The notes under the pieces were generated by a model that searched no databases, was not told where the DNA came from, and was given only the letters and a program-made list of their open reading frames with translations. Both the position numbers and the translations under genes were made by a program. Shown piece after piece: positions 12,159-61,333 of a DNA stretch of 64,000 nucleotides. The stretch spans positions 1-64,000 of IMG/VR virus record IMGVR_UViG_3300029969_000013. One strand, written 5' to 3'. This stretch comes from a virus. Taxonomy: Duplodnaviria; Caudoviricetes. Position 1 is the first letter of the stretch. Each line of letters opens with the position of its first letter.

Positions 12159-12578
12159 GTGAGCTATCATTATGAAAAAAAAATTAAAGCTGTTCCTGGA
12201 AAAGGTATTGTTGCAAGCGTAAACCCTTCTACTCGTAATTATGTTAAGGCTTCTACATCTGGTGCTAGTATACCAGCGCCGTTTAATAAGTACTACGATG
12301 TAGCCACCAGACAAGATTTTCAAGACATGGGTCTTGATACAGATTATTACATGGTTCCGTCTGATGCTTATGAAAATTACAGAGAATTGGAATTAATAGG
12401 CCATGCAGTTGCTAAGCCTGAGTATGAAGAGGCGCTAGGAGAATATTCATGTGTAGATATTGTTCGTGACAGCAGTTACAACAATTCTATAATGCTGGTA
12501 TTACCTGTAGGTGATCGTATATACGATGTTTCAATCAATGAAATTGAGGATCTTATAGATAATGCCAGTGATATCTAA
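12159..12578 (+). CDS. Leader-bearing acidic protein; likely true ATG (12172) is out of frame across an A9 tract
   Basis: Shares KAVPGKGIVAS leader with the next gene; the GTG start at 12159 lies inside the SD. Confidence 0.6.
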   Translation: MSYHYEKKIKAVPGKGIVASVNPSTRNYVKASTSGASIPAPFNKYYDVATRQDFQDMGLDTDYYMVPSDAYENYRELELIGHAVAKPEYEEALGEYSCVDIVRDSSYNNSIMLVLPVGDRIYDVSINEIEDLIDNASDI

Positions 12579-12650
12579 TTAACTATATTATCAAGAGGTG
12601 TTATTATGAGAAAATTTAAAGCTGTTCCTGGAAAAGGTATTGTTGCAAGC
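12184..12650 (+). repeat. Exact 35-bp direct repeat (12184-12218 and 12616-12650) encoding the KAVPGKGIVAS leader
   Basis: TTAAAGCTGTTCCTGGAAAAGGTATTGTTGCAAGC occurs twice. Confidence 0.9.
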
Positions 12651-13049
12651 ACTAATACAAACAAGAAACGTCGTCCTATAACTGCTTCTTCTACATCAGA
12701 TGAACAGATGTTCCAGAAGTATCACAATGAACTCATCAATGAGTATGAAAACGGTGATGCTGTTTCAGATGAATTAGATCTATGGATTGAAGAAACACTT
12801 ATGTCTGCAGTTCTGACAGCAGCTGAAAATGCATATGGTGCTGACGGCATTGAATTCTTTGCAGAGCCATCCGGCCAAGGGGGCAGAGGCGAAGATTTTG
12901 TAACACTCACATATCCAGATGGTTCAACTGAGGACTTTACAATTGATTTACAAGATGAGTATCAAATGGCAGCAGATTGTATACGTGACGCAAACAGCTT
13001 CAAAGAATGTGTCAATATGCTCGCAGACGCTCTCTATCTTGATAGATAA
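12606..13049 (+). CDS. Leader-bearing acidic protein (putative internal head protein)
   Basis: MRKFKAVPGKGIVAS..KKRRPITASS leader followed by a D/E-rich domain. Confidence 0.7.
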   Translation: MRKFKAVPGKGIVASTNTNKKRRPITASSTSDEQMFQKYHNELINEYENGDAVSDELDLWIEETLMSAVLTAAENAYGADGIEFFAEPSGQGGRGEDFVTLTYPDGSTEDFTIDLQDEYQMAADCIRDANSFKECVNMLADALYLDR

Positions 13050-13666: not shown

Positions 13667-14014
13667 ATGAAACGAAAAATCTTAGCAGCTAGGGGATTCA
13701 AACGAGCAGCTGAAAAATATGCTGATAGTTTAAATGATAGTATTTTTGAAAATAGTAATATGTATTATGCAACTGTTGATACTAAAAGAAAACTTGTAGT
13801 AATATGTGATAAGCATACTGATAATGTTGTGACTGAAATTCGACTTAAGACTGTCCCTATTGACGTTACAAATTCTGAATATCGTCTTGCAACACCTAAA
13901 GAAATTTCAAAAGGTATTGGTTTATATGTACGAGATAAGCACAGCTCTAGTACAGAGAAATATATTCCAGAAGCCGAAGAAACAACTTCAATTGCAAATA
14001 GATACAGAAGATAA
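13667..14014 (+). CDS. Hypothetical protein with MKRKILAA leader
   Basis: AAGGAG SD. Confidence 0.7.
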   Translation: MKRKILAARGFKRAAEKYADSLNDSIFENSNMYYATVDTKRKLVVICDKHTDNVVTEIRLKTVPIDVTNSEYRLATPKEISKGIGLYVRDKHSSSTEKYIPEAEETTSIANRYRR

Positions 14015-38173: not shown

Positions 38174-39649
38174 ATGGCAATTAAGAGATCGTCTCGTAGA
38201 CCTATTGCGTCTAGCGTAAATAGACGTAGACCTATTACAGCTGGTACAAGCATTACTTCTGGTGCTAGAAGTAAGAAAGCTCCAAATTCTAAGATAATGG
38301 CAAGCTTCAATGCATTGAATCCAGCACAGAGAGCATTTGTTCGTCAGCTGCAGTCAACATGTCGTAAGCATTCATCTATCATGGGTGCAACTAATACATC
38401 TAATATTGCTGCAAGACCTGAATTCATGGAACTCCTTCCATTATTCGTTCAGAAGCTGCTTATTCTTGATGTATTCGGATCTGTTGCAATGAAGTCCAGA
38501 CAGCAGATGATTCCGTATTTCAAGTTTATAGCTGAAAACACTAAAGGTGAAACTGCTAAGGGTACAATCTTGTCAAGCCCAATGGTTCAGAGACAGGGTC
38601 TTGATCCAAACTTCACAGGACGTGTTGTTAAGAATGAAGTTATCGGTTCGGGTGTGCTTACAGCAGCTGCTGATACAGTTATTGCATCGTTTGCATATCT
38701 TCCTGTACTTCCTGGTTCTGTTACAATCGAAACAAATAAGAGCGGTACTACTACATCTTATGTAGATAATGGCCTTGGTGAAATTCTTGACAGCACACAG
38801 ACTACAATTGCTAATATCAACTACAGCACAGGCGAAATTACACCTGTTACAGCTGGTGTTACACCTCTTACACTCGCAAGCGGCGATACAATGAAGGCTA
38901 CATATCAGTATGACAATGAGACTGTAGGCCCAAATGCCGAAGGTAATTACGGTGCTCAGATGGGTAAGGGTTATCTACAGCTTGATGAATTCAATCTTAT
39001 TGCTGAAGCACATCAGCTTGCTTGCTACTGGTCAATCTATTCTGCATTTGCAGCTCAGACAGAATACGGCAGCAACATTGCAGATGTTGCCAAGGAAGCA
39101 GCATTCTCTGAACTTACAGCTGAGATTAACACAAAAGGCTTCCAGGAACTTGAAAAGGCTGCAAGCTTCAAGCCGCAGTATAACTGGGATGCATCTCCAG
39201 TTCTTACAGGTTCTGTTGTGCCTTCTGATTATCTCAACATGTTCAAGCTCAAGCTGAACCAGGCATCTTCTGCTATTTATCAGGCAACTAATCTGTCACG
39301 TGGTAACAGACTTGTAGTCGGTTCTAACGTAGCTGCTTATGTTGCAATGATTGATAACTTCGTTGCAGACAGCACAGAAGATACAGTAGGTCCATATAAG
39401 CTTGGTCGTCTTGATCAGTTTGAAATTTATGTAGATCCTGCTTACGATCCTAATAAGTGGGTAATGTGCTGCAAGTCTAACGACATTAGACGTAACTCTG
39501 CACTGTTTGGTGAGTACATGCCATTCACAGATACACAGGCAATTGGTCTTGCTAACTCTAGCGTTCAGCAGGGCTACGCTACAATGTATGCTATGAAGGT
39601 TGTAAACCCAGCAACAGTTGTCAGTGGTAAGATTACAGGCGTATTTTAA
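38174..39649 (+). CDS. Major capsid protein (T4 gp23-like) with basic propeptide
   Basis: EAHQLACYWSIYSAF, ELTAEIN, GYATMYAM motifs; directly after the protease; optimised codons. Confidence 0.88.
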   Translation: MAIKRSSRRPIASSVNRRRPITAGTSITSGARSKKAPNSKIMASFNALNPAQRAFVRQLQSTCRKHSSIMGATNTSNIAARPEFMELLPLFVQKLLILDVFGSVAMKSRQQMIPYFKFIAENTKGETAKGTILSSPMVQRQGLDPNFTGRVVKNEVIGSGVLTAAADTVIASFAYLPVLPGSVTIETNKSGTTTSYVDNGLGEILDSTQTTIANINYSTGEITPVTAGVTPLTLASGDTMKATYQYDNETVGPNAEGNYGAQMGKGYLQLDEFNLIAEAHQLACYWSIYSAFAAQTEYGSNIADVAKEAAFSELTAEINTKGFQELEKAASFKPQYNWDASPVLTGSVVPSDYLNMFKLKLNQASSAIYQATNLSRGNRLVVGSNVAAYVAMIDNFVADSTEDTVGPYKLGRLDQFEIYVDPAYDPNKWVMCCKSNDIRRNSALFGEYMPFTDTQAIGLANSSVQQGYATMYAMKVVNPATVVSGKITGVF

Positions 39650-41303: not shown

Positions 41304-42311
41304 ATGAATGTTAAACGTACTAAGAGACAACCTGTATTAGCAGGAGAAACATTGAAGAAGCTTACAAGTTTCTTAAAAGGTGTATCTGAGAAGCTGTTTA
41401 ATCTATTTGATACGTTAGGTGATGAAGGCTTGAAGATTATAGATCAGAAAGATACGCAAGACGGTGGTCAATGGTTAAAGTTAGAATATAACGGTAATAA
41501 TGCTGAAATAACAATTACACCTGCAGACGATAAAGGTGTATTCAATATTATCTTGAAATCTCCAATGGGTGGTACAACTAAGTTTGACAAGATAAGCGAA
41601 GCGGATATTGATACTAAAGTTAAGTCAGCGTTGAAAGATATATTCAGTAGCACACAGCTGAGTTTTTCTAATCCTAATAAGCTTAAAGTTACATTACAGA
41701 GTGTAACATCGGCAACAGGTGTAGACATTAATTTAACTGCAATCAAAGCTAATTATGATACATCGGCAGCTATTCAAGATTTGGAAGCTATACTAGGTGA
41801 CGATGATTTTGTATCGCAAGTTACAGCTGAACCTATTTCATTTGAAATCACAGATAATGGTGAATGCTTTGATATTGAAGAAACATGCAGCTTTGACACT
41901 TCGGATACAATTGTACAGCTTATTCAAGCAGCAATGCAGTTATGGGCTAACTTAAAAGTTATCCATTGGGCTGCTAGAGGCTTAAATAGTTTTGAGCTGC
42001 ATTCAAAATCAGATAACTTAGCATTCTGGGTGATGAATGATGTAGACTGCTTTGGAGAGTATCTTGTTGAATTTAAATGCCCTGCAGTTAATCCATTACT
42101 AAATCAATGTAATTTATCGTTGATATCAGACCAGCAAGGATTTAATGCCGAAGAAGGATATTGTATAATGAAGTCAGAAATTTCTAAATATGTAAACATA
42201 TTAGAAACATTATATGTTAACTTTCCGCATGATTTCCAAAGTGTTCTTGATAACATGATAAGAACTTGGAAGAAAGAATCTGAATATTTCCTCACAAGAG
42301 CTACAATGTAG
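41304..42311 (+). CDS. Leader-bearing protein with C-terminal Dps/ferritin-like domain
   Basis: IHWAARGLNSFELH...VDCFGE matches the Dps HWxxxGxxFxxLH..D..E pattern. Confidence 0.65.
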   Translation: MNVKRTKRQPVLAGETLKKLTSFLKGVSEKLFNLFDTLGDEGLKIIDQKDTQDGGQWLKLEYNGNNAEITITPADDKGVFNIILKSPMGGTTKFDKISEADIDTKVKSALKDIFSSTQLSFSNPNKLKVTLQSVTSATGVDINLTAIKANYDTSAAIQDLEAILGDDDFVSQVTAEPISFEITDNGECFDIEETCSFDTSDTIVQLIQAAMQLWANLKVIHWAARGLNSFELHSKSDNLAFWVMNDVDCFGEYLVEFKCPAVNPLLNQCNLSLISDQQGFNAEEGYCIMKSEISKYVNILETLYVNFPHDFQSVLDNMIRTWKKESEYFLTRATM

Positions 42312-42321
42312 GAGTGTCTAT

Positions 42322-42807
42322 ATGCTTAAACGTGTACGCAATATAGTATATGCACACTGTTCTAATTTTGATGAATGGTATAATCATTGTATTCAAATAA
42401 GTTCAAAATCTGAAGTTGATGAATTGTATGAATCTGCATATGTTCAATATATGGATATGATTGGTGAATCACATTATGTGCTCAAATATAATGAAGTCAA
42501 AAATATGGTTTCTATCATAAGTAGCCCAGACTGGGACACTCGTCAAGAGCCTACAGTAGGAGATAGTATATGTGCTTCTTATGATGAGTATGGTGAAGTA
42601 AAGTGCAAGCTAATCAAATCTACAGGACAAATATATCATAATAAATGGATGTTTGTTCAACCATCATATACAGGATTCAACATTACAGCTTCCAAGTTAC
42701 GAACAGTGTTATGGAATCGTATTCTTAACATCAAAGAGCTTAAATGTAAAATATCATATCGCAAGTATTGGAATCAATTATTGAAAGAAAACGGATTGTC
42801 TCTATAA
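42322..42807 (+). CDS. Protein resembling the non-catalytic domain of phosphorothioation-associated methyltransferases
   Basis: KRV..VYAH, SIISSPDWDT..EP, IYHNKWMFV..Y.GF motifs (recalled family pattern, not searched). Confidence 0.45.
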   Translation: MLKRVRNIVYAHCSNFDEWYNHCIQISSKSEVDELYESAYVQYMDMIGESHYVLKYNEVKNMVSIISSPDWDTRQEPTVGDSICASYDEYGEVKCKLIKSTGQIYHNKWMFVQPSYTGFNITASKLRTVLWNRILNIKELKCKISYRKYWNQLLKENGLSL

Positions 42808-43768: not shown

Positions 43769-43897
43769 ATGAGTGATGTAAAGAAGCTTACTACTGATAA
43801 TGGTTTGATCGAATCTATCGAATGTGACCTCACATACGAAGATTTACCCGAAGATATGAAAGCAGAGTTTGCTGATGGTAAAGGAGGCGAAGACTAA
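43769..43897 (+). CDS. 42-aa acidic peptide coupled to the endolysin (absent from ORF track)
   Basis: AAGGAGG SD; MSDVKKLTTDNGLIES...DGKGGED; TAATG overlap with the endolysin start. Confidence 0.65.
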   Translation: MSDVKKLTTDNGLIESIECDLTYEDLPEDMKAEFADGKGGED

Positions 43898-44949
43898 TGG
43901 CTTATACAAACAGTCCGTTAGTTACTAAAACACAAAGATCTTCTAAACATAATGACAGAAGATATCCAATCACTAAAATTACTATACATCATGCTGCCGG
44001 CGTTATGAGTTTCGACACACTTCTGAATTATGTTGCAACTTGTCCTAGAGATATGTCTGCTAACTATGTACTGCGTCAGGGCAAGCTTGGACTTGTTGTC
44101 GATGAAAAATACAGAGCTTGGACATCTTCTAATGCAGAAAATGATCATAGAGCTGTAACCATTGAAGTCGGCAACTCATCTTCAGGTGGACAGTGGCCTA
44201 TTGCAGATGTCGATCTTGAATTGCTTATCAAATGGTGTGCAGACGTATGTAAGAGAAACAATATTCCGAAGTTGTATTATGATGGAACTCCTAATGGATC
44301 TCTTACACTCCATGAGATGTTCGCTGCAACTGGCTGCCCTGGACCTTATATCAAGTCGAAAATCAATTATATTTGCACAGAAGTAAACAAGCTTATTAAT
44401 TCTACCAGCACTGGTAATACAACGTCATCTGCGCCAAATGCGACTGGTAATTCAACCTATAAAGTTGTGACAAACGTGTACGGTTATATGACAGCAGCTG
44501 ATGCTGTAGCTGACAAAAACCGCAGGCGTACAGTTACTCCTGGTACTTATTATATATATAATGAGACATCTACAGCGGTGAATGTGACATTGAATAAAGC
44601 TGTTCCAGGTGCTTGGATTTGTAAAGCTAAAAACATCACAGCGTCTACATCTACTCCATCTACTAAGAAGTCTGTGGAAGCTATTGCCAAAGAAGTTATT
44701 GCTGGTAAATGGGGCAACGGTTCAGATAGAGTAAATAAACTTACAGCAGCTGGTTACAATGCTACAGAAGTACAGTCTAAAGTAAATGAATTGTTATCCG
44801 GCAAGAAATCTACAAAGAAGTCTGTTACAGAAGTTGCTAAAGAAGTAATTCTAGGTCAATGGGGCAACGGTTCAGAACGTAAGAAGAAGCTTGAAGCTGC
44901 TGGGTACAATTATGCTGAAGTACAAGCTGCTGTAAATAAATTACTGTAA
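43897..44949 (+). CDS. Endolysin: Amidase_2 + two Cpl-7 (CW_7) cell-wall-binding repeats
   Basis: ITIHHAAG..AWTS..HEMFAATGCPG; two copies of KSV..IAKEVI.GKWGNG..R..KL.AAGYN..EVQ..VN.LL. Confidence 0.92.
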   Translation: MAYTNSPLVTKTQRSSKHNDRRYPITKITIHHAAGVMSFDTLLNYVATCPRDMSANYVLRQGKLGLVVDEKYRAWTSSNAENDHRAVTIEVGNSSSGGQWPIADVDLELLIKWCADVCKRNNIPKLYYDGTPNGSLTLHEMFAATGCPGPYIKSKINYICTEVNKLINSTSTGNTTSSAPNATGNSTYKVVTNVYGYMTAADAVADKNRRRTVTPGTYYIYNETSTAVNVTLNKAVPGAWICKAKNITASTSTPSTKKSVEAIAKEVIAGKWGNGSDRVNKLTAAGYNATEVQSKVNELLSGKKSTKKSVTEVAKEVILGQWGNGSERKKKLEAAGYNYAEVQAAVNKLL

Positions 44950-48780: not shown

Positions 48781-48795
48781 TTGAGGTGTATTTAT

Positions 48796-49779
48796 ATGAA
48801 AAAGTTTAAGAAGTATCCATCAAGTATTAAAGCATCGACAGGAGGTCGTAATAGGAAGAAATATGTTCAAGCTGCAGAAAGCGATTACATCAAAATCGGT
48901 AACATGATGATTCCAAAGAATGCTGCGTCTTATGGATATGATAGCTACGAAAATATTGCACGAGATGCAAAGCAGCGTTTGGACATTGAAAGAGAAACTA
49001 AACGTAAGGCAGACGAAGCTGCTGCAAAGGCTGCAAAAGCTAATGATATAAAAGCCAAAGGTGCAGCGTTGTATCAAGAATGTAAAGAAGCTATATCTGA
49101 TGCATCTTCTGATAAAGATAAGGTAAATGCTTTGTTCGATATCTTAGTACCAGATTCTGGAAAATCTGATACGCTTGCAGGTGAGATCATAAGAGCTGTT
49201 ACTCGAATCGGTTATAGATGGTACAATGACGGAGATTATTTCTATACAGGATATGGTCTTGAAACATGCGGCTCAGATGCTGCATTCCTTGCAGATATTA
49301 TCGGTGGTGATACGTTCGATTTAATTGTAGATGCTACAGATAATATGGGAGATGAACAAAGATATGATATGTTCATAGAAGATCTTACACACGATGTATT
49401 AGATTATGTTATGGACAATCCCGATATATTTGGAGTTGAATCTACGTATGACTCTCGTAACTATACAAGTAATACTTTAGACGAAATAAAAGAAAATTCT
49501 AAAAATATGGAATTTGAGCCTGATGTATATGGTTTTGCAGAGTTTGTAGATAGCGGTATTATATCCTGGAGCGATGTTGAATATTGGTTACAAGAACTAA
49601 CTAGTTACTATGGTGGTACTGTTAATGCGTGGGCAAGAGATGGATTCACTATAGTTGATATAGATATGGATCAATATGACGAATGGGAAAATATGTACGA
49701 AAAAGAGTTGGATTCTTACATGTCTGAGCTTGAATCTGAGCTTGAAAACGACGAAAATTACGATGAAGATGAGGAGTAA
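48796..49779 (+). CDS. Leader-bearing acidic protein (SIKAS, VQAA)
   Basis: GAGGTG SD; very D/E-rich body. Confidence 0.75.
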   Translation: MKKFKKYPSSIKASTGGRNRKKYVQAAESDYIKIGNMMIPKNAASYGYDSYENIARDAKQRLDIERETKRKADEAAAKAAKANDIKAKGAALYQECKEAISDASSDKDKVNALFDILVPDSGKSDTLAGEIIRAVTRIGYRWYNDGDYFYTGYGLETCGSDAAFLADIIGGDTFDLIVDATDNMGDEQRYDMFIEDLTHDVLDYVMDNPDIFGVESTYDSRNYTSNTLDEIKENSKNMEFEPDVYGFAEFVDSGIISWSDVEYWLQELTSYYGGTVNAWARDGFTIVDIDMDQYDEWENMYEKELDSYMSELESELENDENYDEDEE

Positions 49780-53797: not shown

Positions 53798-54181
53798 ATG
53801 TGGAATCAAATATTATCAGCAGTGTTAGGTATCGCAATAACAGCACTTGGTACAGTAATTACTACAGTGTTGTTACCGGCATCATGTAATTGGCTGAAAG
53901 CTAAAACACATAGCCAGCATTTACAATCCGTTATTGATGATATAACATTTACAGTTCAGTCTAGTGTAGATATGCTGGAACAGACAGTTGTAAAGCAGCT
54001 TAAGGAAGAAAAATCCTGGAATGCAACATCTCAAGCACAAGTTCTAGAAACAGCTGTAACTGAAATAGTGACGAATTTATCAAATCAGACATTTGACATA
54101 TTGAAAGCAGAAGGTTATAATATTGAAACTTTGGTAAAGCGTCACATTGAAGCATATATTCAATCTAAGAAAATAATTTAG
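53798..54181 (+). CDS. Putative holin (LL-H-like)
   Basis: Single N-terminal TM helix; EQTVVKQLK..AQVLETAV pattern. Confidence 0.6.
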   Translation: MWNQILSAVLGIAITALGTVITTVLLPASCNWLKAKTHSQHLQSVIDDITFTVQSSVDMLEQTVVKQLKEEKSWNATSQAQVLETAVTEIVTNLSNQTFDILKAEGYNIETLVKRHIEAYIQSKKII

Positions 54182-54191
54182 AGGTGATTTC

Positions 54192-55589
54192 ATGCGAATA
54201 ATCAGATCGAATCGCAATATTAATGCTGCATCTATGCCGCCTACTCCTTATGATATTGGACCTGAAGATCCTAAGGAGTATAGCAAGCTCGATGAGTTTG
54301 ATTCTGAATTAGAGCTGTACTTTGATGAGCCTATAACTATTGATGAGGATGGTTATGTTGAGCTTACAGGTACAGAGTATATGCTCAATCCTGCACCAGA
54401 CCGAATGGGCATGTATCTTGACTATGATTACAATGTTGAGATAGCAGATGCCGATGACATATATGATCGACTTGGCGATGAATTAAATGCTATAGGCATA
54501 GGTTCTAAATATGCACCTGGAACATACAAAGTGACTGGTATTATCAATCTAGTTTCTTCTGTTAGCGGCATAGAATATGATGACGAATATTCTGGTGTTG
54601 ATGAAGACGGTGATCCAATTGTAGATAGGTCTTATTATAAAGATGATTCAGACTACACTATCAAATCATTTATAGTATCTGATGTAAAAGTATCTGGTGC
54701 TACTATAAACAGCTCTACAACTGTAGTAGGATACGATGGCATTGATGAAGATAGCTGGAAGTATCTCCGTAGTAAGCAGGTAATAGACTCAGACGGTATG
54801 CTGACTGATTACACATTGTACAAAAATGCAGATGGTACACAGTTTATATGCATGTTTGGTGATAATGATTTGTATGAACCTGATCCTGATTATGCAGACT
54901 GGGAAGGTAGCTCCGAGGAGGAAGCTATTGAATGGTTTGACAATTACAGCAGCGGTTATGATGAATACGATGATATCTATGGTGCAGAGTCTGCAGATGA
55001 ATCTGATGCATATGATGAAATCAAAGAAATAGGCCAGGAGTTTACATCTGAAAATACATCCATTAACAGCGGTAGACTTCCAGCAGTGTTCAACATGGTA
55101 AATTTTGAACCTAGTACAGTCAACCTCGACTACGGCGGTGGTAAGTTTGACAATGTTGCAGAGTATCTTACACAGTATGATGTTATCAATCTTGTATATG
55201 ATCCGTACAACAGAACTGCAGAGCATAACAAAGAAGTCATTGGACTTATTCGTGAACATGGTGGAGCAGATACAGCTACATGTTCTAATGTGCTGAATGT
55301 TATCAAAGAACCGGAAGTTCGTTTGAATGTTCTTCAGAATATCAAGAAGCTTGTAAGACCTGGTGGTACTGTTTACATTACAGTATATGAGGGTAAAGGT
55401 AATGCAGCTGAAGGTCCTACAAAGTCTGGCTATCAACTTAACAGAAAGACAGCCGATTACATGGAAGAAATCCAGCAAGTATTTCCTGATGCAAGACGTA
55501 AGGGTAAACTTATCATTGCTACTAACAGTGGTGCTGTTACAAGCTCTACAGATTATGAGGATGATGACATCGAACTTATCACGCTGTAA
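54192..55589 (+). CDS. Leader-bearing multidomain acidic protein with C-terminal class I SAM methyltransferase domain
   Basis: NLDYGGGKFD (motif I), YDPYN, CSNVLNVI, VRPGGTVYITVYEG. Confidence 0.8.
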   Translation: MRIIRSNRNINAASMPPTPYDIGPEDPKEYSKLDEFDSELELYFDEPITIDEDGYVELTGTEYMLNPAPDRMGMYLDYDYNVEIADADDIYDRLGDELNAIGIGSKYAPGTYKVTGIINLVSSVSGIEYDDEYSGVDEDGDPIVDRSYYKDDSDYTIKSFIVSDVKVSGATINSSTTVVGYDGIDEDSWKYLRSKQVIDSDGMLTDYTLYKNADGTQFICMFGDNDLYEPDPDYADWEGSSEEEAIEWFDNYSSGYDEYDDIYGAESADESDAYDEIKEIGQEFTSENTSINSGRLPAVFNMVNFEPSTVNLDYGGGKFDNVAEYLTQYDVINLVYDPYNRTAEHNKEVIGLIREHGGADTATCSNVLNVIKEPEVRLNVLQNIKKLVRPGGTVYITVYEGKGNAAEGPTKSGYQLNRKTADYMEEIQQVFPDARRKGKLIIATNSGAVTSSTDYEDDDIELITL

Positions 55590-59515: not shown

Positions 59516-61333
59516 ATGATGAAACTTTCATCTATCCACATTCAAGGTATGCATAACGTTGAAGACAAAACCTACTCCCTTAGTAATATGAATTACTTTG
59601 TAGGTCCTAACGGTGCAGGAAAATCAACAGCTATGCAGGCAATTCAGCTTGCACTTCTCGGATACATTCCAGGTACAGACAAGAAGAAATCAGCTATCTT
59701 CCAACATTCAAATGGACAATTCATGTCAGTATCTTTGGTACTCGAAGATGGTAACAAGCAAATAACTATCAACCGTACTTGGAATCGTAAAGGTAAGGAT
59801 GTTGTAGCAGCTGTTAACACAGTACCAGATGATATAGATGTCGAATCTATCATTGGAGAAATCTCGCTCCCAATCCTTAACTTCAATGAATTCATCTCGA
59901 TGACATCTAACAAGTTGAAGGACTGGTTTATCAACTTCCTTCCAAACAGTGATTCTTCTATTGATTGGGACAAGAAGCTTCGCCAGGAGATTGCTGATTA
60001 TGGTAAATTACTCAGTCCAGAGTATGTAACTGAAATAATTACTTATGTTACTAATCTCAAGAGTAAAGGTCTCGATCAGATAAGAGAATTCAATGCGTTT
60101 TTAAAACAGCAGCAGTCTTTCAAGAAAACTGAACTTACAAGAGTACAAGGCACCATTCAGAGTCTCATTTTCTATGATGACTGTGACAATTCAGTAGATG
60201 TATGTACTCTCAAGGAACAGAATCGAGTAGATTCACTTATCAAAGATAACATCAATCATCAGCTTTTAAGGATTTCTAACAATAAGAAGATTGATGCTCA
60301 ACTTAGTTTGCTTACAGAAGTAGTAAGTGATTCACTTGAATCTGATAATAGATATCAGGAAAATCTCAGCAACATTGCAGCTGCTGATAAAGTAATTGCC
60401 GAATGTAATAATACAATTAGTGATTATTCAAATTCACTTGCAGCTCTCAAACAGAAGCGTGCAGATAAAGTTGAAGTAATCAACGGTGCAGGTGTATGTC
60501 CTTACAGCGGATCAGTTTGTGAATCCATTCGTAAATTATTAGATGTGTTCAAATCCGATGTTGAAAATATTGACGCTGATATTATCAGATTCAATGACGA
60601 ACGTTCAGCTAAAGAAAAAGAACGAGTTGCTGCAGATACTCAGAAGCGTATGTGTGAAAATCATAACGCTAAGATAACAACACAGTACAGCCAGTATGCA
60701 TCTCTTAAGAAGCAGTATGACTTTAGTGTTGTTGATCTTGAAGAGTCTATGCTCCAGAAAAATCTAAAGAAAACAACATCTGATATAGAAGCTAGAAATG
60801 ATCTTATTATTAAACTAGAAGCTAATAAGCAATACAACGAGCTTACACATACATTGACTGCTCAGAAGTTTCAGATTGAACAGGAGCTTGAGATTCTGAA
60901 AGCTTGGATAAAGCTTACAGATGTAAATGGTATGCAGTCTACAATCATGGAAGCTCCGTTCAATAATCTTGCTGGTAAAATGTCTGAGTATTTGAACAAA
61001 TTCTTCAACAGAGATGATCTGACAGCTGCATTTCATCTTACACAAGAAGCTAATAGTTTCAGTTTTGGAATCCGTAAAACTGATAACACATATCTGGAAT
61101 TCGACTTACTGTCTAGTGGTGAAAAATGTTTGTACACATTGTCGCTTATGCTTGGTCTGATTGAAACATCTGCTACACAGCTGCCAATTATTCTCATTGA
61201 TGACTTGCTTGACCATCTTGACCAGGAACGAATTGCATCTTGCTTTGAAACCTTGTATGATATTGATAATGTACAGGTACTTCTTGCAGGTGTACAAAAC
61301 TCACCTATCGCTGAAGGTATTATTGAGGTGTAA
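59516..61333 (+). CDS. SbcC/Rad50/SMC-like ATPase (gp46-like)
   Basis: GPNGAGKST, central coiled coil with CPYSGSVC, LSSGEK, ILIDDLLDHLD. Confidence 0.9.
   Translation: MMKLSSIHIQGMHNVEDKTYSLSNMNYFVGPNGAGKSTAMQAIQLALLGYIPGTDKKKSAIFQHSNGQFMSVSLVLEDGNKQITINRTWNRKGKDVVAAVNTVPDDIDVESIIGEISLPILNFNEFISMTSNKLKDWFINFLPNSDSSIDWDKKLRQEIADYGKLLSPEYVTEIITYVTNLKSKGLDQIREFNAFLKQQQSFKKTELTRVQGTIQSLIFYDDCDNSVDVCTLKEQNRVDSLIKDNINHQLLRISNNKKIDAQLSLLTEVVSDSLESDNRYQENLSNIAAADKVIAECNNTISDYSNSLAALKQKRADKVEVINGAGVCPYSGSVCESIRKLLDVFKSDVENIDADIIRFNDERSAKEKERVAADTQKRMCENHNAKITTQYSQYASLKKQYDFSVVDLEESMLQKNLKKTTSDIEARNDLIIKLEANKQYNELTHTLTAQKFQIEQELEILKAWIKLTDVNGMQSTIMEAPFNNLAGKMSEYLNKFFNRDDLTAAFHLTQEANSFSFGIRKTDNTYLEFDLLSSGEKCLYTLSLMLGLIETSATQLPIILIDDLLDHLDQERIASCFETLYDIDNVQVLLAGVQNSPIAEGIIEV

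Follow-up and report, generated by a model that had tools for sequence, protein, structure and literature searches.

The window analysed here, a 64,000-nucleotide stretch of viral DNA, encodes as two separate genes what are probably the two parts of one conserved module, namely a class I SAM-dependent methyltransferase, which forms the C-terminal part of a 465-residue protein (ORF465), and an accessory domain of about 150 residues, which stands alone as a 161-residue protein (ORF161). Many phage proteins contain both parts as a fusion; the pair also lies inside giant phage polyvalent proteins and makes up the bacterial proteins of the TIGR04096 family, arranged as domain-methyltransferase-domain. 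In the unfused form, ORF161 would bind the methyltransferase in trans and supply or alter its substrate recognition. Two further elements of this proposal are more speculative: the enzyme's target could be a host or phage molecule other than a DNA base (RNA, a nucleotide, a protein or the backbone), and the enzyme might act at an early stage of infection, once it has been delivered from the capsid.

All genes in the window are on the plus strand, and its GC content is approximately 35%. No phage with DNA-level similarity to the record was found in the INPHARED set, and the capsid protein is approximately 25% identical to capsid proteins of large Streptococcus, Listeria and Bacillus phages. Upstream of ORF161 lie, in order, the genes for a head maturation protease, the major capsid protein, an adaptor-like protein and a protein of 335-347 residues with a Dps-like C-terminus; downstream are those for an endolysin, NrdG and a helicase. 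The Dps-like protein scores far under the cut-off of the NCBIfam Dps model (E 0.0077) and matches phrog_3636, 'DNA binding protein', at E 4e-7; its gene adjoins the adaptor gene in relatives too. The endolysin has an N-terminal amidase part followed by two near-identical C-terminal repeats (…AKEVI.G.WGNGS.R..KL.AAGYN..EVQ..VN.LL), an architecture compatible with a Gram-positive host. The coordinates of these and the other features discussed are collected in the table below.

Table. Coordinates of the features discussed. Positions are those of the window unless preceded by a locus handle (L).
Feature	Position	Strand	Remarks
Window	1-64,000		Part of a 77-kb IMG/VR virus record; record ~51% complete
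Small protein	12159-12578		Basic motif within first 35 residues
Small protein	12606-13049		Basic motif within first 35 residues
Small protein	13667-14014		Basic motif within first 35 residues
Capsid protein	38174-39649		Basic motif within first 35 residues
Dps-like protein	41304-42311		C-terminal ~110 aa resemble Dps/ferritin-like DNA-binding proteins; basic motif within first 35 residues
Shine-Dalgarno AGGAG of ORF161	42310..42314	+	7 nt 5' of the ORF161 start; overlaps the preceding gene's stop codon; read from the sequence
ORF161	42322..42807	+	161 aa; accessory (non-catalytic) domain, shared with TIGR04096-type proteins and phage methyltransferase fusions, standing alone
Endolysin	43897-44949		
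Small protein	48793-49779		Basic motif within first 35 residues
GAGGTG ribosome-binding site of ORF465	54181-54186		
ORF465	54192..55589	+	465 aa: ~280-aa acidic N-terminal extension and C-terminal methyltransferase; basic motif within first 35 residues
N-terminal extension of ORF465	54192..55028	+	280 aa, very acidic; starts with MRIIRSNRNINAAS
Class I SAM-dependent methyltransferase domain	55029..55586	+	ORF465 aa 280-465 (186 aa)
Protein with weak DndD-model matches	59516-61333		605 aa
326-aa protein of Vibrio T4-like phages	L001:2806-3786		
DUF6011 proteins in the slot of ORF161	L143:4301-4789; L144:6176-6643	+; -	C-terminal zinc-ribbon motif, E 7.5e-8
True TIGR04096 proteins	L164:931-2817; L165:952-3207		Methyltransferase flanked on both sides by an accessory domain

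ORF161 is a real, conserved gene. A search of 1.8 billion proteins at E<=1e-3 placed 573 clusters (50% identity) in its family, and ten near-full-length relatives are 36-98% identical to it. The strings quoted in the initial annotation, KRVRNIVYAH, VLKY..VSIISSPDWDTRQEP and IYHNKWMFV, are all present, and they sit on the most conserved columns of the family (Y10, H12, E76, P77, Y105, H106, K108, F111 and V112). The near-invariant residues of the family are K3, Y10, H12, E76, P77, Y105, H106, K108, F111, V112, Y116, G118, F119, R127, G145 and W150; ORF161 retains every one of them but G145, which is replaced by serine (G145S), and both it and ORF465 have good ribosome-binding sites, two facts that count in favour of the module. 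By hhalign, H12, H106 and K108 are also retained in the TIGR04096 copy of the domain. This conservation suggests a ligand pocket, probably formed by the conserved histidine, lysine, glutamate, arginine and aromatic residues of ORF161.

When ORF161 was scanned against Pfam and PADLOC with hmmscan, nothing usable was returned, and no LPD or other polyvalent-protein domain model of Pfam was matched. Its matches in PHROGs are to families of unknown function only, and sequence searches of the PDB with ORF161, the ORF161 family profile, the methyltransferase and the methyltransferase profile gave none below E 0.01. The family profile, run on the 77-kb record at E<=1, finds a single copy of the domain, which is ORF161 itself; the idea of a second copy hidden in the N-terminal half of ORF465 was rejected on that ground. 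A homologue is found in Vibrio T4-like phages (KVP40/nt-1 group), where a 326-residue protein has the ORF161-type domain at about residues 66-168 and an unrelated C-terminal part. The gene for this protein sits among genes annotated 'prohead protease inhibitor'.

The initial annotation had likened ORF161 to the non-catalytic repeat of TIGR04096-type proteins, and the methyltransferase at 55038 to their catalytic part. TIGR04096 (dnd_rel_methyl, 'DNA phosphorothioation-associated putative methyltransferase') is an NCBIfam family with a curated cut-off of 150 bits for the whole-protein score. Taken as single sequences, ORF161 fails this comparison and ORF465 nearly does: ORF161 alone has no match in NCBIfam even at E<=10, the methyltransferase part of ORF465 alone reaches only E 0.091 and 11.5 bits against TIGR04096, and the TIGR04096 model has no match in any of the six frames of the record. 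By the curated score, neither ORF161 nor ORF465 is a member of the family. This failure is overturned by family-level profiles and hhalign. When 84 standalone members of the ORF161 family were scanned singly, 63 matched TIGR04096 (best E 1.2e-10), and no other family was matched by more than two of them; the fused relatives of ORF161 map to positions 316-460 of the 478 in the TIGR04096 profile. True TIGR04096 proteins for the alignments, scoring 537 and 502 bits, were drawn from sampled Gammaproteobacteria. Against the 537-bit protein, the ORF161 family aligns over 147 columns (hhalign probability 97.3%, E 1.9e-11), within the first 167 residues of that protein, whose GKQLPDAVYIHKS, ITFLNYPRFEEYAYPEL, ILHRKETFV and NIGFKKNW pair with the motifs of ORF161.

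The methyltransferase behaves in the same way. TIGR04096 is matched by 33 of 60 members of its family (best E 8.6e-10), the next-best NCBIfam family being matched by 11 of the 60 with a best E of 0.016. Aligned to a true TIGR04096 protein by hhalign (96.4%, E 1.2e-9), the methyltransferase family pairs NTSIN..KLP with KTAIDRNKLS, DYGCGK with DYGCGK, and a Q-R-N region with FQRY. Both proposed likenesses are thus borne out by the families, that of ORF161 at the family level only and on the very motifs that had been named. By these comparisons, ORF161 is homologous over its entire length to the accessory domain, at TIGR04096 profile positions of about 315-470, and the methyltransferase core to positions of about 10-250.

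ORF465 carries the methyltransferase motifs TSENTSIN..LPA, LDYGGGK, VYDPYN, SNVLNVI and YEGKG..G.T..GYQLN, and its SAM-binding motifs are intact. Pfam groups the enzyme with Methyltransf_23/11/12, the C-terminus of ORF465 scoring E 6.8e-6 and 26.3 bits against Methyltransf_23, just below the gathering score of 27. With the methyltransferase family profile, a single copy is found in the record, at 55032-55526 (E 9e-49). Full-length homologues of ORF465 that share its N-terminus are present in the closest relatives.

ORF161 and ORF465 lie 12 kb apart, in different modules, and this separation counts against the proposed pairing. What argues for it is that natural fusions, adjacency and co-occurrence all indicate that the two parts belong together; on this comparative evidence, the ORF161 domain and the ORF465 methyltransferase are functionally linked. 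A natural fusion of 468 residues, P0148, aligns both to residues 282-431 of ORF465 (38% identity, E 3e-28) and to residues 48-152 of ORF161; a search of the genome contigs with P0148 gave no match. At least 31 of the 46 ORF161 homologues of 250 residues or longer carry this methyltransferase by local HMMs, in both orders, with linkers of approximately 5-15 residues in those that have the domain first, and three further long homologues carry Methyltransf_23 by Pfam. Small two-domain fusions of 310-390 residues, which hold only these two parts, are numerous and also come in both orders. The AF2 model of one small fusion, P0024, has both parts well folded (pLDDT 92.4, pTM 0.79).

Where the two parts are separate genes, they are adjacent in four records (G004, G006, G025 and G030) and, in the three closest relatives, separated by 12-15 kb; in two others (G009 and G014) both parts lie within open frames of approximately 4000 residues. 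Moreover, the methyltransferase is present in 22 of the 35 IMG/VR records (63%) that hold an ORF161-like domain, most of these records being fragments; in a pattern-limited search of 2.9 million viral contigs, 196 loci of this methyltransferase were confirmed. Homology, fusions, adjacency and co-occurrence thus uphold the earlier claim that this phage encodes homologues of both TIGR04096 parts as separate genes 12 kb apart.

The giant fusion carriers contain Kinase-PolyVal and GNAT domains, and since Kinase-PolyVal is a mark of polyvalent proteins, we regard these carriers as such. Polyvalent proteins string unrelated activities together (Iyer, Burroughs, Anand, de Souza, Aravind 2017; PMC5512222), and those of phages and conjugative elements have been argued to be delivered early in infection (PMC5512222). 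The presence of the pair inside polyvalent proteins points to an early conflict with the host, and possibly to delivery with the DNA.

The link between the two parts is one-sided. Among 50 viral records chosen for the closest methyltransferases, only four hold an ORF161-like domain, which counts against the module, and the domain gene is found in one of 11 near-complete methyltransferase records. G036 and G039, both complete and closely related, have a DUF6011 zinc-ribbon protein of 155-162 residues where ORF161 would lie, between the Dps-like gene and the homologue of ORF132; hence, the position of ORF161 is a variable accessory-gene slot. Given that complete relatives carry the DUF6011 gene instead, and that 46 of the 50 records are without the domain, the methyltransferase does not need the domain. 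In the opposite direction, two complete domain-bearing records (G012 and G031) show no methyltransferase at E<=1e-3. The Vibrio homologue, too, is without the methyltransferase part, and its joining of an ORF161-type domain to an unrelated C-terminal part also speaks against the module.

These observations could be read as a sign that the two genes are independent, ORF161 being a free-standing accessory gene with its own function in a variable slot, ORF465 being self-sufficient, and the fusions being an expression of the polyvalent habit. The absence of the domain from those 46 records, the DUF6011 gene in its slot and the non-methyltransferase tail in the Vibrio phages would all fit; so would the joining of unrelated activities in polyvalent proteins (PMC5512222), the occurrence of the domain with NlpC/P60 and other partners, and the strongly conserved histidine, lysine and glutamate residues of ORF161, which could themselves be catalytic. 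We nevertheless consider independence unlikely, because the 310-390-residue fusions join just these two parts, in both orders and in large numbers, because the same pairing is kept in the bacterial TIGR04096 proteins, and because the methyltransferase accompanies 63% of the domain-bearing records and yet has few loci in the whole collection.

Under the two-part module that we prefer, ORF161 is the dependent partner, since the domain is rarely found without the enzyme and the enzyme is commonly found without the domain. The accessory domain therefore looks like an optional, dependent partner of the methyltransferase, and the one-sided pattern fits an accessory subunit for specificity or regulation more readily than it fits one half of a split enzyme whose parts are obligate. 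Of the term 'split homologue', used in the initial annotation, the part that stands is that both parts are encoded, and encoded apart; 'split' itself overstates their dependence, as so many methyltransferase records are without the domain.

The AF2 model of ORF161 (pLDDT 98, pTM 0.91) consists of a six-stranded sheet with two long helices, followed by a helical tail. Foldseek against the PDB gave no match at E<=1e-3, and VIA-align against 48,161 chains gave a best Z of 4.3, with no nuclease, PUA/SRA-like or sulfur-binding domain among the matches. Against BFVD, one unnamed homologous segment was the only match; scores against the ESM Atlas are at most 0.84 and uninformative, the Atlas's own model being poor. 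Fold searches with the model of the fusion P0024 matched only residues 152-312, as a plateau of class I methyltransferases at Z 10.6-12.4. The structural neighbours of the methyltransferase are small-molecule, peptide and tRNA methyltransferases; no DNA methyltransferase is among the best 50 rows of either search, in a flat class I list that still allows a DNA substrate. Because this plateau is flat, the fold neighbours give no substrate for the enzyme. Its conserved columns contain neither (D/N/S)PP(Y/F/W) nor the cytosine-5 motifs PC/ENV, and have NVLNVI after strand 4.

The structural results bear directly on the proposal that the pair protects the phage's own DNA by a new modification, ORF161 being the part that recognises DNA. 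We find this highly improbable: as far as the best 50 neighbours reach, no DNA methyltransferase is among them, the conserved columns lack the DNA methyltransferase motifs just named, the enzyme belongs with Methyltransf_23/11/12 by Pfam, and fold searches with the accessory domain returned no known DNA-binding fold. These points are set against a family name that ties the relatives to DNA modification, the common use of phage methyltransferases in protecting DNA, and an accessory domain that flanks the catalytic core as target-recognition domains do.

It had also been proposed that the pair counters or mimics phosphorothioate-based (Dnd/Ssp) defence, for example by methylating the phosphorothioate sulfur or a Dnd/Ssp component. 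The name of the nearest catalogued family, 'DNA phosphorothioation-associated', invites this idea, and some neighbours in the flat fold list are thiol, halide or tellurite methyltransferases. The genomic evidence lends it no support. A search of the record, which is approximately 51% complete, for dndC and dndD found no dndC, and the only dndD-like signal stands at 39 bits versus a cut-off of 245, so that the association with dnd genes expected of TIGR04096 is not seen there; the PADLOC models gave no match either. Among four sampled genomes that carry TIGR04096-type genes, a small set, the search detected no dndC and a single dndD, which lies on another contig; no dnd gene was seen next to the true TIGR04096 genes. 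Furthermore, JSS1_004, a phage protein known to act against Dnd, combines kinase and shutoff functions and is not a methyltransferase (PMC12345140), the enzyme does not have the look of a DNA base methyltransferase, and its nearest folds are the small-molecule, peptide and tRNA enzymes mentioned above. A literature search for TIGR04096 found no functional study and one incidental genome paper only. The link of the pair to Dnd/Ssp is therefore unsupported, and we hold it to be highly improbable.

The dndD-like signal comes from a 605-residue protein, which has two weak matches to the DndD model (39 and 25 bits). The same model finds matches in 11 of 14 control genomes, and for this reason we take the protein to be an SMC/Rad50-type ATPase of a generic kind, which probably serves as a subunit of a recombination nuclease. 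As a separate observation, one of the true TIGR04096 genes has a convergent Ser/Thr protein kinase gene as its neighbour.

No Pfam model matches the N-terminal extension of ORF465, which only the closest relatives share; in more distant ones, other extensions of 190-250 residues take its place. A match to the AcrID1 family at residues 38-81 (E 0.0054, 17 bits versus a cut-off of 30) is probably due to chance. The start of the extension, MRIIRSNRNINAAS, is kept in the closest homologues and resembles RRPITAG and RRPIASS at the N-terminus of the capsid protein and RQPVLAG in the Dps-like protein. Written as a pattern, [KRQN][KRQN]x[IV]xA[ASG], this basic motif (RRPITAG, RQPVLAG, NRNINAA and similar) has 10 occurrences in 61 proteins, seven of them within 35 residues of the N-terminus. 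Since this pattern was drawn up with the data already in view, the motif evidence is only suggestive. The motif may be a prohead-protease or capsid-targeting signal; processing and packaging of ORF465, with a putative cleavage point at MRIIRSNRNINAA/S, may follow as a lead only. ORF161 is without such a leader, its N-terminus being the first strand of its fold.

The most far-reaching version of the two-part module would make ORF161 a new fold, serving as the substrate-selecting subunit of a capsid-delivered phage methyltransferase that acts not on a DNA base but, for instance, on a phosphorothioate sulfur of the backbone, an RNA or a nucleotide-type immune signal. We rate this version as distinctly unlikely. 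If true, it would reveal a new class of counter-defence or takeover enzyme, common to the bacterial TIGR04096 proteins.

Taken together, ORF161 and ORF465 represent, in a phage and in unfused form, a module that is catalogued but uncharacterised. The 573 clusters of the accessory domain attest to its wide distribution, yet it has no Pfam model, solved structure, confident structural neighbour or literature. In phages, in giant polyvalent proteins and in bacterial TIGR04096 proteins alike, it is tightly associated with a single methyltransferase family. The unfused pair is a convenient experimental handle, given that each part can be separately expressed, deleted and assayed. Such work could show what the target of TIGR04096-type enzymes is, and whether the label 'phosphorothioation-associated' means anything.

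In comparison with known systems, the ORF161 family has in common with TIGR04096 the motifs GK..YxH, S(F/I)(I/L)..P.(W/F)(D/E), (Y/L)H.K..FV and IG....W, and the phage methyltransferase shares with it an N-terminal T(A/S)I..(K)L(S/P), DYGCGK, DP, NVI and a Q-R past the last strands. True members of TIGR04096 differ in being one polypeptide of 628 to more than 750 residues with the domain-methyltransferase-domain arrangement, whereas the window has two genes and a single copy of the domain; they also lack the unrelated 280-residue acidic N-terminal extension of ORF465, and their context is a bacterial chromosome instead of a phage. Polyvalent proteins (PMC5512222) provide a second comparison, as the methyltransferase-domain pair of the window's families is embedded in phage proteins of 2500-4000 residues. 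These are giant proteins, whereas the window's own are small and separate (161 and 465 residues), and the methyltransferase that PMC5512222 describes, fused to a helicase, is a DNA adenine enzyme of the DarB type and of a different family from that of ORF465. The closest relatives of both window genes are the phage and metagenomic fusions (P0024, P0081, P0093, P0148 and others), together with standalone phage methyltransferases of approximately 172 residues. ORF161 is 34-41% identical to the domain part of the fusions, and the ORF465 methyltransferase matches this group down to E 4e-38. In those relatives the two parts are fused, in either order, or adjacent, as in the four records named above; in the lineage of the window they are unlinked.
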